Shown here piece by piece: positions 9,671-35,577 of a stretch of 64,000 bases of DNA; the first letter of the stretch is position 1, and each line of letters starts with the position of its first letter. Location of the stretch: positions 1,488,001 through 1,552,000 of the forward strand of contig CP060755.1 of assembly GCA_023205875.1 (NCBI GenBank), given 5' to 3'. The notes beneath the pieces are model-generated. The model did not search any database. It saw only the letters and a list, made by a program, of their open reading frames with translations, and was not told the DNA's origin. A program made the translations under genes and the position numbers. The DNA comes from Chloropicon primus (lineage: Eukaryota).

Positions 9671-9691
9671 GAAGGGGCTGAGAAGAGGCTG

Positions 9692-10549
9692 ATGGGGGAC
9701 CTTCGAGAGTTTGTCGCAGGTGGTTTGGGTGGCGTGGTGGGAATCACGGTGTGCCAGCCACTCGACATGATCAAGGTGAGACTGCAGTCGAGTGGTAAGG
9801 TGTTTGGAAGGCAGCGATCGAACATTCAGATCATGGCAAGCATTGCCAAGAAGGAGGCCCTGTCTTCTTTGTGGAAGGGGATGTCGGTGCCACTGTATTC
9901 CAATGCCTTGCAGAATGCCTTTGTGTTTCATGCGTACAGCCAGGCGGTGAAAGCTTTAGCTTCTGGCGAAAGAGAAAGCGGGTCGCCACCACTGGGGACA
10001 GTCTTCGCTTCTGGCTGCATTGCGGGCGCCGCCCAGGCTCTGATCACGACCCCTGTCGAGCACGTCAAGATAAGATCCCAAATGCAGAGGGCGAAGCCAG
10101 GCAGCGTAGGTTACGTGACCCCCCGAACCATTGTGGCCCACCTTGCGAGACGCCAAGGGTTTCGCGGTGTCTTCTCTGGGCTTGCTGCGACGGTGCTTAG
10201 GGACACGCCGTCTTACGGCGTCTATTTCTTTCTGTACGATTTCACGAGGGAGTTGATGACCCCGAATTCCAGGCAGACGGGCAGTGATGGGCCACTGCAC
10301 CACCTGCTGGCCGGCGGCGTCGCGGGCGTGGGAGCCTGGGCGTCCATCTACCCCGTCGACGTGGTGAAGACCCGTATTCAGGCTTCGGAGCTGGGGACGA
10401 AGAGGTCTTTCCTCGAGTGCGCGAGGGAGATCCACAGGGAGAATGGGGTCTCAGGCTTTGGGCGCGGGTTTTCCAGCTGCCTTTTGAGAGCCTTTATGAT
10501 GAACAGTGTTATTTTTGCTATCTACGAGTTTACGCTCAAACTACTGTAA
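9692..10549 (+). CDS. Mitochondrial carrier family protein (basic amino acid/carnitine carrier-like)
   Basis: Three PxD/ExxKxR repeats: 'PLDMIKVRLQ', 'PVEHVKIRSQ', 'PVDVVKTRIQ'; 'RDTPSYGVYF'. Confidence 0.9.
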   Translation: MGDLREFVAGGLGGVVGITVCQPLDMIKVRLQSSGKVFGRQRSNIQIMASIAKKEALSSLWKGMSVPLYSNALQNAFVFHAYSQAVKALASGERESGSPPLGTVFASGCIAGAAQALITTPVEHVKIRSQMQRAKPGSVGYVTPRTIVAHLARRQGFRGVFSGLAATVLRDTPSYGVYFFLYDFTRELMTPNSRQTGSDGPLHHLLAGGVAGVGAWASIYPVDVVKTRIQASELGTKRSFLECAREIHRENGVSGFGRGFSSCLLRAFMMNSVIFAIYEFTLKLL

Positions 10550-10595: not shown

Positions 10596-12518
10596 TCATG
10601 CGCCTACAGCCGCCAGGGCCAAGGCGACGTCATCATCAGCTGCGGAATCGTCTGTTTCCCTCATGATATCCGAGGCCAAGGTTCGTATGTTGGAGGACAG
10701 ACCCAAAGTGCCCGCTGAGAGGTCCGAGAGCCCGAAATTCAGCTGCATCCGCAGCTCCTTCCTCTCAGCTTCCAGCTCCGCTACCTTGATCAGCAGGAGG
10801 GTGTACTCCCTCTCCAGCCTCGAAGAGTTCTCCTCCGCTTTGCCGAGCTTGCGCTTGAGGTTCGCATTGGCGTTCAAGTAAGTCTTAATGGCTGACTGCT
10901 GTGCTTCCTCGTGCCTCTTTGTTGTGGTGGCCCTTTCCAAGGCAAAGTTCCTTCTCGAGTCCTCCAGCTCAGCCTCTTTTACCTTGATCTGGTCTTCGTA
11001 ACTCCTGCGGCAAGACCTTAGCCTGTCCTCGACCTGGTCAAATTCGTGCTCAAGCTTCTTCTTCTCCCTCTCCAGGCGCTCGGCCTCCGAGGAGGATCTC
11101 AGGCACTTGTCCGTCTGCTTTTCGAGATCCTGCAAGATTGCCGAGTTCTCCTTCTTGCACCTGATCACCTCTGTCTGCAACTTCCTGGCAGTCTCCTCCG
11201 CGCTGTCGACCTTGTCCTTCAGCACCGAGTTCTCCTCCTTGAGCAGAGCGTTGGTCCTCTCCAGAGTCACGATCTTCTCCACGCCGGAGTCCAACTCCAT
11301 CTGCAGCTGAGACAGCCTCTTCTGCGTCTCCATCATCGAGGCGCGGTCCTTCGCGTCGTTCTCGATCCCGGAGAGTTTCAACCTCGCGTTCGCAGCCTCA
11401 AGCTTGCCCACGTATTCCTTGTGCTCGTCTTGCAAATCTTTGATTTCCTTCATGTGCTGGGTCGTCAGCAGAGCCAAGCGCTTCTCCTGCGACGCCATGG
11501 AGTTCTCGAGGGTCCTCTTGTCCCTCTCGAGGTTCGACTTCAGTTTCAGGACATTGCTCTCGTCCAGGGTCCGTTCGGCCTCCCTCTGGACGGAGAACGC
11601 CTCCAGTTCCGACTTTTGCTTCGACAGGTCCTTCTGGGCCTGCAGCAGTTCCTTATGCAGCTCCGCGTCCCTTTCCTTCGTCTTCCTCATCTCCTCCTGC
11701 AAGTGCTCGCACTGCCGGTGGAGCGTGTCGTTCTTGCTCTTCAAGCGCGACTCCGACTCCCACCACTCGGCCCTCGCCTCGTTCAGGGCCTTCACCTCCT
11801 TCTGCACCTCCGCGTCAGCTCGGAGTCTGGCCTCCCTCTCCTGCTTCACCTCGTCGAGAAGGGACTTTTGCTGCTGCTCCAGGCTCAGGCACTGGACTTC
11901 CAGCTCGTTCTTCGCCCTCGTCACCTCGTTTGGATCCTGACCGAAGAGCTCCGTCAGTTTCTTCGTCTCCTCCACTTCCTCGAGGAGAGCCGAGTACCTC
12001 GACTCTTGGACCTCCAAGTCATTCTGCAGCCGCCGTGTCGTGTTGGCGAGTTCCTCCTTCAGCACCTCCTGCACCTTCCACAGCTCAGTGCAGTCCTCTA
12101 TCTTTTCGTGCACGAGGCCGTCGAGCTGGTCGATCTTGGCCAAGAAAGGACCCTCGATCTCCGTCCTCAGCCTCTCCTCCAGAGCCTTCGCCTCGGTCTG
12201 CGTCAAGATGTGAGACTTGGCCTCCTCGAAGTTCTTGTAGCTCTGCTCGAGCTCCTGGGCGAGCTCCTCCACCGTGGCGGAGACCTCCGCCTCCCGCGAG
12301 ACCAAGTCGCTCCTCAGGACGTTGTTCTCCTCCTGGAGCTCCTCGTTATTCGCTCTCAACTCCTTGTGCACTGCCTGCAAGTCCACGAAATTTGACCGCA
12401 GCCTCACATTCTCGCGCTTGATGTCCTGGAGAGCGCGCAAGAGCTTCTCGAGCTTCTCCACGCGACCGAGGTCCTCCTCCCCTCCCCCGCCAACCCACTC
12501 CTCCGACGTCGACGACAT
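10596..12518 (-). CDS. Long coiled-coil protein, CEP83 (CCDC41, centriole distal appendage)-like
   Basis: All coiled-coil. 'KSHILTQTEAKALEERLRTEIEGPFLAKIDQLD' resembles the recalled CEP83 segment (ILTP..LELLR..I..ELE.P...R...LD). ATG at 12518. Confidence 0.5.
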   Translation of the reverse strand: MSSTSEEWVGGGGEEDLGRVEKLEKLLRALQDIKRENVRLRSNFVDLQAVHKELRANNEELQEENNVLRSDLVSREAEVSATVEELAQELEQSYKNFEEAKSHILTQTEAKALEERLRTEIEGPFLAKIDQLDGLVHEKIEDCTELWKVQEVLKEELANTTRRLQNDLEVQESRYSALLEEVEETKKLTELFGQDPNEVTRAKNELEVQCLSLEQQQKSLLDEVKQEREARLRADAEVQKEVKALNEARAEWWESESRLKSKNDTLHRQCEHLQEEMRKTKERDAELHKELLQAQKDLSKQKSELEAFSVQREAERTLDESNVLKLKSNLERDKRTLENSMASQEKRLALLTTQHMKEIKDLQDEHKEYVGKLEAANARLKLSGIENDAKDRASMMETQKRLSQLQMELDSGVEKIVTLERTNALLKEENSVLKDKVDSAEETARKLQTEVIRCKKENSAILQDLEKQTDKCLRSSSEAERLEREKKKLEHEFDQVEDRLRSCRRSYEDQIKVKEAELEDSRRNFALERATTTKRHEEAQQSAIKTYLNANANLKRKLGKAEENSSRLEREYTLLLIKVAELEAERKELRMQLNFGLSDLSAGTLGLSSNIRTLASDIMRETDDSAADDDVALALAAVGA

Positions 12519-12600
12519 CCTTCGCCACACGCACACACACTCTCTCTGGCGCTCCCCCTTCTGTCGTATTGTGCCCAATTTAAAACTACCGCGAAAAAAA

Positions 12601-12863
12601 TCGTAGCGTGACGGAGGAGTACACCTCTCAATGCTGTGGCAAATGCGGAAACCTCAAGAAGAACCTGGGTGGATCAAAGGTTTACAAGTGCCAGAAGTGT
12701 GGCTTCAAGTGCGGTCGGGACGATAACGGGGCACGCAACATCCTTCTCAAGCACTTGTGTGAACCACAAGAAGTGTAGCTCTTCGGAGCTGCTCGGGTTT
12801 GTTAGTACCGATATCCCCAGGCCATTGTTTCACCAACCAATGGCTTTGAAACTAAACTAACAG
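12601..12863 (+). mobile_element. 5'-truncated Fanzor2 / IS607-like TnpB element remnant (nuclease 3' end plus omegaRNA/right end)
   Basis: Intergenic, more AT-rich than the flanking genes. TnpB/Fanzor C-terminal coding fragment followed by a structured RNA ending ...ACTAACAG|GG. Left boundary uncertain. Confidence 0.78.
12608..12778 (+). pseudogene. C-terminal fragment (56 aa) of Fanzor/TnpB RuvC nuclease
   Basis: Translates VTEEYTSQCCGKCGNLKKNLGGSKVYKCQKCGFKCGRDDNGARNILLKHLCEPQEV*: ExYTS motif, CxxC-x14-CxxC zinc ribbon, RuvC-III RDxNxARNI. In-frame TAA at 12581 upstream and no ATG. Below the 60-aa ORF-track cut-off. Confidence 0.87.
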
Positions 12864-12885
12864 GGAATTACCTCAAATAAATTTA
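12775..12885 (+). ncRNA. Candidate Fanzor omegaRNA scaffold (12775-12863) plus guide (~12864-12885)
   Basis: GTAGCTC-TTCG-GAGCTGC hairpin (12775-12792). TGTTAGT (12800-12806) is complementary to ACTAACA (12856-12862). Stem AGGCCATTG/CAATGGCTT (12819-12846). Position at the nuclease 3' end is typical of omegaRNAs. Confidence 0.62.
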
Positions 12886-12918
12886 CTTCTTTTTTTTTTT
12901 TTAGGAAAAGAAAAGATT

Positions 12919-14637
12919 TCACGAGTTGGTCGCCTGCTGAAGTTGGTCCGCCATGATGCTCAACTGGTCGTGGAAGATGACCTTCATCTCCTTGATGTCG
13001 TCCTCGAGCTGCTCGATCCTTTCCTCCCCTTCGCCCACCAGGATCATGGCCGTGTCGCACCGCTTGGTCAAGTCGTTCACGGTCCGCTCCAGCTTCACGC
13101 ATTCATCCAGGGCCTCGTTCCTTGACTCTTCTGTGCTCCTCAGCTGCTCCTTCAGGCTTCTCACTTCCCCGTCCTGGTCCCTCCCGCCGTTCTGAAGCAG
13201 GCCCCAATTGATTTTGGCACTGGAGTCTTTGAGCAAGTCCTCGAGGCCGTTCGAGTCCTCGAGGGCCGCCTCGCCTCTGCCGGACGTGCCCAAGTGACTC
13301 AACTGCTCCTTCTGCTCGTCGATGATCTCCCCGTTCGTCTTAATAATCCCCTTGTACCTGTCCTCCAGGTGCCTGATCTCACTCTCCTTGTCGGCCAGTT
13401 TCCTCTCAAACTCCATCTCCTGCCTGTCAATCCGTTGCAGCAGGGACTGCTCTCTCTCGCTGAAGCTCTTCACCTCGTTCTCCAGCCCCGCGGCTTTCCT
13501 CACCGAGGACAGCACCCTTTGGTGCTGCTGCTCCAGCTGCCTGTTCGTGTCCGCCACCGTCTCTTTCAGCTTGATGACGACCTCCTCGGTAGACATCGCG
13601 ATAGTCTCCGAGGCCAGGAGCTTCCCCTCAAGAACTCGGATGTGGTCGTCCTTCTCCGCTAGCCTGGCCCTGAAATCAGCCGCCACGGCGTTTGCCTCCT
13701 CAGAAGCCTGCTGCGCCCCGGCCCTCAGCATCTCGATCTCCGCGAGGTATGGCTTCTGTTGATCCGCGTAGGCGTTCCCCATTTCCGCCAGCTTCGTCTC
13801 CAGCTGCTGGTACTTGTGCTCCAGGAATCGATTCTCTTTTCGGACGCTGTCCTCCCTCTCCGCGGCGGTGCTCTCCAATTCCATCAAAGAGCTCTGGAGC
13901 CTCTGCACTTGCTCGGAGAGCTTGTACTCCTTCTCCCTCGAGAGAATCGCCTCGTGCTTGTGCTCCTCCTCAAGGCGCGCTCTGTAGTCCTCCAGCTGCT
14001 TCTCGTACCCCCTCTTCAGCTTGTCCGACATGGCCTCGTACTTTGCGCGCTCCTGCTCCAGGTCCTTGGACAGGTTCTCAAACTTTTCTCCGTTTTCACC
14101 GCCACCCCCCGGGCCACTGCCTTCGCAGTTCTCCCTCCGAAAGCCCTTCTTGAGGCTCTGCACTTGGTCGTGCAAGCGCTCCCTCTCCGCGGTCTCCTCC
14201 CGCAGGCTGCTCCTCAGCTTCTTCACAGTCCCCTCCAGCTCGCCTATCTTCCGTGCCAGCCCGTCCCCCTCGCCCTGGAGCGCCGCTATCGTCTCGTCCT
14301 TGTCCCTTATCCGGGTGTCTTTCGTGTCCTGAGAATCCCTCAGCTCATGCAGCTCGGCCCGCAACCCGTCCCGCTGCTCTGTGACGCCGATGAGCTTATC
14401 CTCCAAGGACGCCAACCGCTCCGCGAACTCCTGCGTGAGCTCCTCCATTTCGTCGCCCCCCTGCCCCCCCGTTGGGCTCGAGCCCGCACGAGCACGCGCC
14501 TGCAGCTCCTCATTCTCCTCCTGCAAAGCCTTATTCAACACGCCAAGCGTCGCCACCTTCCTCTCCAACTGCTTCACCTTCCGCGAAAGTTGCGCGGACT
14601 CCGCCCTCGGCGAACTCCCCACCCCGCTCATCCCCAT
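12919..14637 (-). CDS. TMF1: TATA element modulatory factor TMF1 / golgin candidate 5
   Basis: 'KDETIAALQGEGDGLARKIGELEGTVKKLR' (TMF DNA-binding-like) and C-terminal 'RCDTAMILVGEGEERIEQLEDDIKEMKVIFHDQL' (TMF TATA-binding-like). Confidence 0.82.
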   Translation of the reverse strand: MGMSGVGSSPRAESAQLSRKVKQLERKVATLGVLNKALQEENEELQARARAGSSPTGGQGGDEMEELTQEFAERLASLEDKLIGVTEQRDGLRAELHELRDSQDTKDTRIRDKDETIAALQGEGDGLARKIGELEGTVKKLRSSLREETAERERLHDQVQSLKKGFRRENCEGSGPGGGGENGEKFENLSKDLEQERAKYEAMSDKLKRGYEKQLEDYRARLEEEHKHEAILSREKEYKLSEQVQRLQSSLMELESTAAEREDSVRKENRFLEHKYQQLETKLAEMGNAYADQQKPYLAEIEMLRAGAQQASEEANAVAADFRARLAEKDDHIRVLEGKLLASETIAMSTEEVVIKLKETVADTNRQLEQQHQRVLSSVRKAAGLENEVKSFSEREQSLLQRIDRQEMEFERKLADKESEIRHLEDRYKGIIKTNGEIIDEQKEQLSHLGTSGRGEAALEDSNGLEDLLKDSSAKINWGLLQNGGRDQDGEVRSLKEQLRSTEESRNEALDECVKLERTVNDLTKRCDTAMILVGEGEERIEQLEDDIKEMKVIFHDQLSIMADQLQQATNS

Positions 14638-34258: not shown

Positions 34259-35577
34259 ATGGCGACGGCACCATCGACGGAACCGGCGCCCATTATCCAT
34301 GTCGACACCAAGACGTACGACAGCCAACTGGCCGCCAAGGTAAGCGGGGAGCAAGCAAGCGAAAACAGCAAAGGCAATATGGAAGTGAGCTTGGTGGAGT
34401 GAATAATTAACTTTGGGTGCGGCTGCTTGTGTTTGTTTGTGGCGCCACCGTGGTGCAGGTGGAGAGGGTGAAGACGCAGTTTCGGGAATACTACTCGGGC
34501 GAGCTCGACGTGTTCCGATCAAAGAAGAAGCACTACCGGATGAGGGCGGAGTTCCGGATATGGCACGACTACAAGGAGGAGGAAACTTACTTCGTGATGT
34601 TCCAGGGAGGAAGCCGCGGTTCGAAGTACAGGGTGGACGACTTCGATGTTGGCTCGGAGCTGCTGAACGGTCTGATGCAGAAGGTGATAGAAGGTGTGAG
34701 GGGGAGCGAAGTTCTATCGAAGAAGATCTTCCAGGCCAACTTCCACACCACGCTTTCCGGGCAAGCTATGGTCTCTTTGCTTTACCACAGAAAACTGGAC
34801 GACGAGTGGAAGGCCGAGGCGGAGAAGCTGAAGGAGTCCCTGGGGACGACGGAGGGCCTCGAGAAGGGCCACGTTCCGTCGGTGATCGGTCGAAGCAGGA
34901 AGCAGAAAGTTGTGCTCGGCACCGACTATGTTGTCGAAACCTTGCCGGTGAATGGCAAGCACCTCAAGTACCAGCAGCTGGAAGGGGGGTTCTCCCAGCC
35001 GAATGGAGGCATGTGCATTCACATGCTCGAGTGGGCGATCAAACACACAAGCAACGAGGAGAGCAAATCCCACGACTTGCTCGAGTTGTACTGCGGGAAC
35101 GGCAACTTCTCCATTGCCATGGCGGATAATTTTAAGATGTGTGTGGGAACGGAGGTTTCCAAGACGTCGGTAGCGGCCGCAAAGTACAACATCGAGGAAA
35201 ATGGGACTGGCAACGTGTTCATCGCGAGGTGCAGCAGCGAAGACTTCTCCAGCGCTTGGCTCAGCAACAAGAAGTCCTTCAAGAGGTTCGAGCAACAGGG
35301 TCTCGATCTTGCGGAGTGCGACTTCAAAACCGTTTTGGTCGATCCGCCGAGGGCTGGCCTGGACGCGGACACCGTGAAGCTTGTGGGCAAGTTCGACACC
35401 ATCGTTTACATCTCTTGCAACCCTGACACCCTGCATAACAACGTCAGGGACCTCTCCGAAACGCACACTTGCACTCAGTTTGCGCTCTTCGACCAGTTCC
35501 CGTACTCTCACCACGTGGAGTGCGGGGTCATACTCAAGAAGAGGGAGGGGGCGCCTTGCTCGAACGGTGGCTCATGA
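34259..35577 (+). CDS. trmA: tRNA (uracil-54-C5)-methyltransferase, bacterial TrmA type; intron 34340-34458
   Basis: 'YDSQLAAK|VERVK', 'HYRMRAEFRIWH', 'FSQPN', 'DLLELYCGNGNFS', 'VDPPRAG', 'YISCNP', 'FDQFPYSHHVECG'. In-frame ATG at 34049 could add an organellar targeting peptide. Confidence 0.9.

Follow-up and report, generated by a model that had tools for sequence, protein, structure and literature searches.

A Fanzor2 right end with a complete omegaRNA scaffold sequence in Chloropicon primus, probably a truncated relic

When the RNA of a transposon looks intact beside a protein gene that is nearly gone, is the RNA still at work, or has it had too little time to decay? This question is raised by a short locus of the alga Chloropicon primus (contig CP060755.1), found within a stretch of 64,000 nucleotides that we analysed as a whole, refer to as the window, and use for all positions given below. 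A sequence-only reading had proposed an omegaRNA scaffold that outlasted its Fanzor nuclease and could act as a stand-alone guide locus. Our preferred answer, to which we assign a probability of roughly 0.72, is that positions 12607-12863 make up the right end (257 bases) of a Fanzor2 transposon of the Chloropicon type, including a complete omegaRNA scaffold sequence, and likely represent a recently truncated, unselected relic. The features of the locus are as follows:

12526..12606, minus strand: host upstream region of a coiled-coil gene, fused to the remnant; no left end or target-site duplication found
12607..12778, plus strand: 5'-truncated Fanzor2 coding remnant, 56 codons and TAG, no in-frame ATG (matches to PF07282 and P0005)
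12775..12792, plus strand: hairpin over the stop codon (TAG 12776-78), 7 pairs including one G-U, loop UUCG (pair probability 1.0)
12793..12818, plus strand: putative omegaRNA core stem S1 (GGG/CCC), its loop with the 5' pseudoknot strand 12801-12806 (MmeFz2 has identical TCGGGTT and TATCCCCAGG motifs)
12819..12846, plus strand: variable stem S2, 9 pairs (one G-U), 10-nt loop (pair probabilities 0.81-1.0)
12847..12863, plus strand: TGAAA linker, putative 3' pseudoknot strand 12856-12861, terminal AG (from the MmeFz2 register and the ends of relatives)
12864..12884, plus strand: predicted guide, made of host flank and antisense to the 3' region of a TMF1-like gene (from the scaffold end)
12890..12902, plus strand: T13 run, at which a plus-strand transcript may end (26 nt past the scaffold end, longer than any other T run of the window)

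A truncated Fanzor2 gene between two host genes

The remnant lies between two minus-strand host genes and occupies 257 of the 400 bases that separate the stop codon of the first (12919) from the ATG of the second (12518). The gene with its stop at 12919 is TMF1-like, with matches to Pfam PF12325 and PF12329. The other one (10596-12518, minus strand) encodes a 640-aa protein that appears coiled-coil-like by eye and had no match in a Pfam profile search; no contig of runs X5 and X6 was found on its 5' part, and both runs cover the TMF1-like neighbour. By eye, an open frame at 9671-10549 (minus strand) looks like a mitochondrial carrier protein.

The frame 12584-12775 matches PF07282 with an E-value of 1.2e-12 in the Pfam profile search, the homologous part being 12608-12775 only, and the 56 codons of the remnant hold the RuvC glutamate, the four zinc-finger cysteines and the RuvC aspartate. 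They are 77% identical (43/56) to the C-terminal end (residues 668-723) of P0005, a C. primus Fanzor2 of 723 aa, and the rest of this protein (the first ~667 codons) has no other match within the window. An intact element is recognized by a full-length ORF with the DPG motif, the shifted glutamate and the zinc finger; here, residues 668-723 of 723 are all that is found. A 32-nt match at 35244 (E 0.23) was considered as a second relic and rejected as too weak.

Six of the eight matching proteins are named C. primus IS605 transposases (73-79% identical over 56 aa), matching proteins form clusters of up to 46 members, and full-length paralogs of 722-723 aa with all catalytic motifs exist. The C. 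primus genome paper reports 25 such IS605 transposase genes (PMC6731263). Yoon 2023 describes the algal family (PMC10711439 and its bioRxiv version) as Fanzor2*, residing in non-autonomous elements that have terminal repeats and 5-nt duplications of variable kind, and P0002 appears in Table S3 of that study (PMC10711439). The EPQE tail of the window copy recurs in four of 40 proteins, all of them short (83-144 aa) and devoid of the DPG motif; a full-length protein with this tail was not found among these 40, which include 15 listed of the 46 members of cluster 2, the largest. The long proteins of the set end in RQPKSV or continue into host sequence. Two copies of the EPQEV type (P0001, P0035) have lost the stop codon, and their reading frame continues through the omegaRNA region; when the read-through tail of P0001 was back-translated degenerately and compared with the 3' half of the scaffold, 51 of 300 shuffles scored equally well. 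Three C. primus gene models (P0009, P0006, P0040) fuse Fanzor2 to a host SET domain (PF00856) or to other exons, which likely reflects annotation read-through at insertion sites. No short proteins of 30-98 aa were found.

The terminal inverted repeats and the 5-nt duplication of an intact Chloropicon Fanzor2* transposon are absent at the locus. The best candidates for a left-end inverted repeat match at 11-14 of 25 positions against a background of 10-17, so that none stands out, and plausible left ends show no target-site duplication of 5-6 nt, the sole candidate lying inside a host gene. The match of a paralog contig to the window ends before 12607. The left junction (12577-12611) is located inside an A-rich, promoter-like host stretch, and five bases (ATCGT) are common to its host and Fanzor sides, which fits microhomology repair. 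The upstream motifs presumably resemble the E2F and CHR sites of cell-cycle genes.

An omegaRNA scaffold behind the stop codon

The scaffold lies directly 3' of the Fanzor2/TnpB coding end, and all coordinates given for it in the sequence-only reading hold, element by element. The S1 strands are GGG 12795-97 and CCC 12815-17, the S2 strands are 12819-27 and 12838-46, and 12800-06 is the exact reverse complement of 12856-62. Folding of 12775-12864 gives z = -3.06, with one of 200 shuffles as good. A complement of at least 7 bases to the last 10 nt occurred in 81 of 5000 shuffles, and one anywhere at long range in 94 of 2000. CUUCGG sites number 38 in the window, and only the one in the stop-codon hairpin is enclosed by a stem of at least 5 pairs. 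A folding program without pseudoknots gave the GGG/CCC stem a pair probability of 0.02-0.14 and the long-range helix one of 0.72-0.77; the former value is low because S1 crosses this helix and competes with it when pseudoknots are forbidden. Support for the GGG/CCC stem comes from homology to MmeFz2 and not from energy, and its register would be 12815-17 or 12816-18. An alternative stem of four pairs (12793-96/12808-11), 2 kcal better in isolation, was dropped in view of the MmeFz2 scaffold. Rfam returned three matches, all far under the gathering scores, and no family was assigned.

The comparison that carries our identification is the one with the published scaffold of MmeFz2 from the mollusc Mercenaria mercenaria (PMC12923547). 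The skeleton named in the sequence-only reading turned out to be real: TCGGGTT (12793-99), TATCCCCAGG (12812-21), TGAAA (12847-51) and CAG (12861-63) are identical in MmeFz2 and stand in the same order, amounting to 25 bases in common. The names of the MmeFz2 variants fix the pairs A11-U, U12-G, U13-A and U15-A (PMC12923547, supplementary file 4), and the MmeFz2 pseudoknot thus extends from G10-C99 to U15-A94. Placed in this register by eye, 12801-06 pairs with 12861-56 in the window as G-C, U-A, U-A, A-U, G-C and U-A. At the sequence level, two of these six pairs are unchanged with respect to MmeFz2, three carry double-compensatory changes, one has changed on one side, and none is broken. None of the variants named in the source converts an A-U or G-U pair in S1 (PMC12923547), which fits a pure GGG/CCC stem. 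Since the pseudoknot maps in the MmeFz2 register, we predict that the scaffold and the right end of the element lie at 12863 and that the guide would start at 12864. The proposal of an omegaRNA scaffold with a 3'-end pseudoknot ending at ~12863 thus appears to be borne out by the match to MmeFz2.

Three of the four motifs in the spacing of the window occur once in 2.9 million viral contigs, in an unrelated coding region, and skeleton scans of viral contigs gave 1 + 50 matches, with a Fanzor-like match at none of the 51 loci.

Right-end RNAs of relatives and paralogs

Relatives share the general plan. The set consists of 86 loci, 80 with 200 nt downstream, 69 distinct and 51 in 7 families of at least three members. 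At 45 of these 51, the last bases before the drop in conservation complement the stop-codon region over 5-8 Watson-Crick pairs, a count made without shuffle control; miscalled ends account for three or more of the six misses. The conserved end of the relatives lies 1-2 nt past the pseudoknot strand. The same plan was recognized by eye in cyanobacterial relatives, among 22 listed of 61. No Chloropicon copy was found in the metagenome scan (81 loci), the viral scans or the prokaryote scan (best 80 of 348).

Two variations on this plan were seen along the way. At L023, L061, L062, L076 and L093, which are viral or metagenomic Fanzor2 right-end RNAs, one to four tandem hairpin units of ~39 nt are inserted in the pseudoknot loop after the stop codon, with the 3' end unchanged. 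Within one pro-Fanzor-like family, whose scaffold spans only 58 nt after the stop, L090 shows a compensatory pseudoknot change relative to L020, L025, L051, L078, L079 and L089.

Paralogous copies come from contigs of sequencing runs. Run X1 contains 88% of the window's words, and the loose ends of its contigs read as tails of C. primus IS605 proteins. Its depth is tens-fold raised over the coding tail alone, where it reaches 8601 and 5281, the flanks standing at about 145-166; depth is not equivalent to copy number. Examined by eye on these loose ends, two paralog types keep all 7 pairs of the first hairpin, with one double and two one-sided changes relative to the window, so that covariation among homologous copies is indeed present for this hairpin. 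The paralog loop is CUCA; UUCG is private to the window copy and finds no support as a feature of the family. The paralogs also keep the 5' pseudoknot strand, and their homology runs past the stop codon to ~12808, paralog sequence covering the 5' half of the scaffold only. Among the listed differences between window and paralogs, 4 of 16 are synonymous, each scored singly, a share that is uninformative.

Selection and decay

In any selective sense, the claim that the RNA outlasted the protein finds no support: decay has gone no further in the coding remnant than in the RNA. In the first 40 codons of the remnant, 0 of 40 residues fall outside the range of 42 distinct intact tails, and 204 of 360 single-base changes would give an out-of-range residue or a stop; in a leave-one-out comparison, 21 of the 42 intact tails also score 0. 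The resulting 95% bound on neutral drift is 4.4%, a rough figure as related sequences were treated as independent. The probability that 25 of 25 RNA pairs survive neutrally is 0.67 at 1% drift, 0.44 at 2% and 0.13 at 5%. Position Q8 departs from a lysine conserved at 93%, and this residue is also present in a relative. Because the coding remnant is equally undecayed, the intact RNA fold needs no selection to explain it. Truncated tails are common: among the 52 viral or metagenome loci for which 900 nt upstream were available, 6 consist of the tail only, not all of them independent. Three of these belong to a family, and the pseudoknot is damaged in L074 and L093 but intact in L062.

We propose the following history. 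In the whole element, a transcript running through the right end into the flank would have given a pseudoknotted scaffold with a flank-derived guide, and Fanzor2 loaded with this guide may have cut empty sites, helping the element to persist. A single deletion or an aborted copy would have removed everything left of 12607, thereby fusing the tail to the upstream region of the host gene and leaving a copy that is presumably immobile now, and proteinless. According to this proposal, the RNA owes its intact look to the small number of mutations acquired since truncation. The coding tail, the scaffold homology, the pseudoknot register and the loss of both the left end and the first ~667 codons are the parts of this account that the comparisons above establish.

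Several considerations speak against an unselected relic. Selection must have shaped the RNA of this lineage at some time, since the first hairpin has more Watson-Crick pairs than those of the paralogs, and a UUCG loop; the data cannot place the end of this selection at the truncation. The drift bound is loose and gives room for weak selection, and the undecayed coding tail could itself have been kept as part of a precursor RNA. The layout, a host promoter region on the 5' side and T13 after the predicted guide, could yield a transcript. TnpB can excise the omegaRNA from its own mRNA (PMC10278001), and a read-through transcript could therefore mature in principle.

Alternative explanations

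These considerations lead to the reading that competes best with the relic, although we deem it unlikely: a working stand-alone guide gene, transcribed from a bidirectional host promoter to the T run, whose RNA a Fanzor2 of the main family would trim and load in trans. All MmeFz2 core elements are present, with compensatory changes in the pseudoknot, complete catalytic motifs are available in full-length paralogs, and the junction is found in an independent run: a contig of X3, another study's DNA run, bridges it (12574-12819, 1 difference in 246 bases), so that the relic is not private to one culture. Scaffolds of SpuFz1 ghosts work in trans when expressed artificially in human cells, where they support editing (PMC10432273). 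As C. primus is diploid (PMC12633428, PMC6731263), the natural target would be the empty allele of the locus itself, and the RNA could drive itself to homozygosity. The boldest form of this idea, a 257-base one-ended homing element in which a promoter-driven orphan omegaRNA with a 71-nt core and a Fanzor2 supplied in trans convert empty alleles as a natural split gene drive, strikes us as distinctly improbable. Against a guide gene stand the lack of any sign of selection since protein loss and the fact that the EPQE tail has no full-length bearer among the 40 proteins mentioned above. Nor did the guide find a target away from its locus: the window holds no second match within 3 mismatches, and the 18-nt guide had 3 viral matches, none extending, against 7 for a control 18-mer. 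We rejected a guide directed at a virus, these matches being at chance level. Runs X5 and X6, whose RNA type is a guess, have contigs on 12607-12781 that are paralogs and none over 12782-12918, which carries no weight either way.

We consider it improbable that the fragment was kept as a cis-acting sequence of the host, its stable hairpins serving that role or being protected by it. Two sets of signals must fit into the 400-base gap, of which the relic makes up 257: those for the 3' end of the TMF1-like gene, and the coiled-coil gene's promoter. Deletions would thus be constrained from both sides, and a contig of X5 ends at 12608, beside the junction. This contig, however, continues into different sequence before 12526 and hence belongs to a second locus, its RNA status is a guess as stated, and transposon ancestry fully explains the pairing pattern.

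The second locus brings up a further reading, an internally deleted and still mobile mini-element with its left end near 12526, which would be a true ghost-like element. The segment 12526-12814 seemingly occurs twice in X1 (unitig depths of 234 and 304 versus 145-166); unitigs break at 12814/12815, and X1 and X5 each show a loose end before 12526. Unitig depth gives about two loci of the window type. Yet there is no inverted repeat and no target-site duplication, and there are two copies only. The second locus seems to match the first from the host upstream region through the coding tail into the RNA and to diverge halfway along it, at 12815; a break within the scaffold is hard to square with movement as a unit. 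We regard this reading as very improbable.

That the hairpins arose by chance, or that the junction is an assembly artefact, deserves hardly any credence: each short complement is modest alone (81/5000 shuffles) and no single listed contig spans the whole stretch, but four motifs in order, 25 bases in all, agree with MmeFz2, three motifs so spaced are found once in 2.9 million viral contigs, and overlapping X1 contigs tile the locus while the X3 contig bridges its left junction.

Comparison with known systems

The truncated relic that we favour has to be set against the proteinless loci described earlier. The ghosts of Saito 2023 have both inverted repeats and no ORF, with 134 copies in S. punctatus, and the same source counts 42 Fz loci there, 19 full-length and the rest partial (PMC10432273). 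Like the Spu-1 ghosts, the window copy has a scaffold but no full gene and coexists with many full-length copies. It differs from them in that they extend from repeat to repeat, without ORF and in 134 copies, whereas it is a one-ended partial found at one or two loci. Having no left end, no target-site duplication and a partial ORF, it is a partial copy that fits the 'partial' class of Saito 2023 (PMC10432273), and the label of ghost locus in that paper's sense does not apply to it.

With the Chloropicon Fanzor2* elements it shares the protein family and a right-end RNA with a pseudoknot, which Yoon 2023 predicts for both Fanzor2 and Fanzor2* RNAs (PMC10711439). In contrast to these elements, it consists of 56 codons only, and lacks the left end and the duplication; its tail reads EPQEV, and its scaffold has diverged and bears a UUCG loop. 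Earlier publications already cover the protein family and its pseudoknot, as well as Fanzor RNA loci without a protein; in the literature covered by our search, which left out most subscription journals, we found no paper on this locus or one testing an algal RNA. As a relic, the locus is of little importance. Expression and loading of the orphan RNA, should they occur, would make the locus a direct example of a proteinless Fanzor locus acting in trans in its own host.

In ApmFz2, whose structure paper places a pseudoknot at the scaffold core (PMC11832414), and in viral and cyanobacterial loci (L014-L099, L161-L240), the final bases ahead of the variable flank pair with a loop close to the stop codon, as in the window. 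The letters that these RNAs have in common with the window are short motifs only, and those elements are of the IS607 type. The 25-base skeleton is absent from ~160 such viral and cyanobacterial relatives and is common to the algal scaffold and that of the mollusc.

The likeness to MmeFz2 has its limits as well. The S1 region of the window is 6 nt longer, the scaffold has inserts of 6 nt and 4 nt, four of the six pseudoknot pairs differ in their letters, S2 is much shorter than in wild-type MmeFz2, the core has 71 nt versus 101, and the extra 5' hairpin (12775-12792) precedes the position of the MmeFz2 scaffold start. The distal part of S2 is dispensable in MmeFz2, and its pseudoknot model rests on an AlphaFold3 prediction (PMC12923547). 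The algal locus provides a natural covariation check on this model. The algal and mollusc Fanzor2 proteins are reported as distant, independent captures (Yoon 2023, PMC10711439), and despite this their RNAs share a common skeleton of 25 bases.
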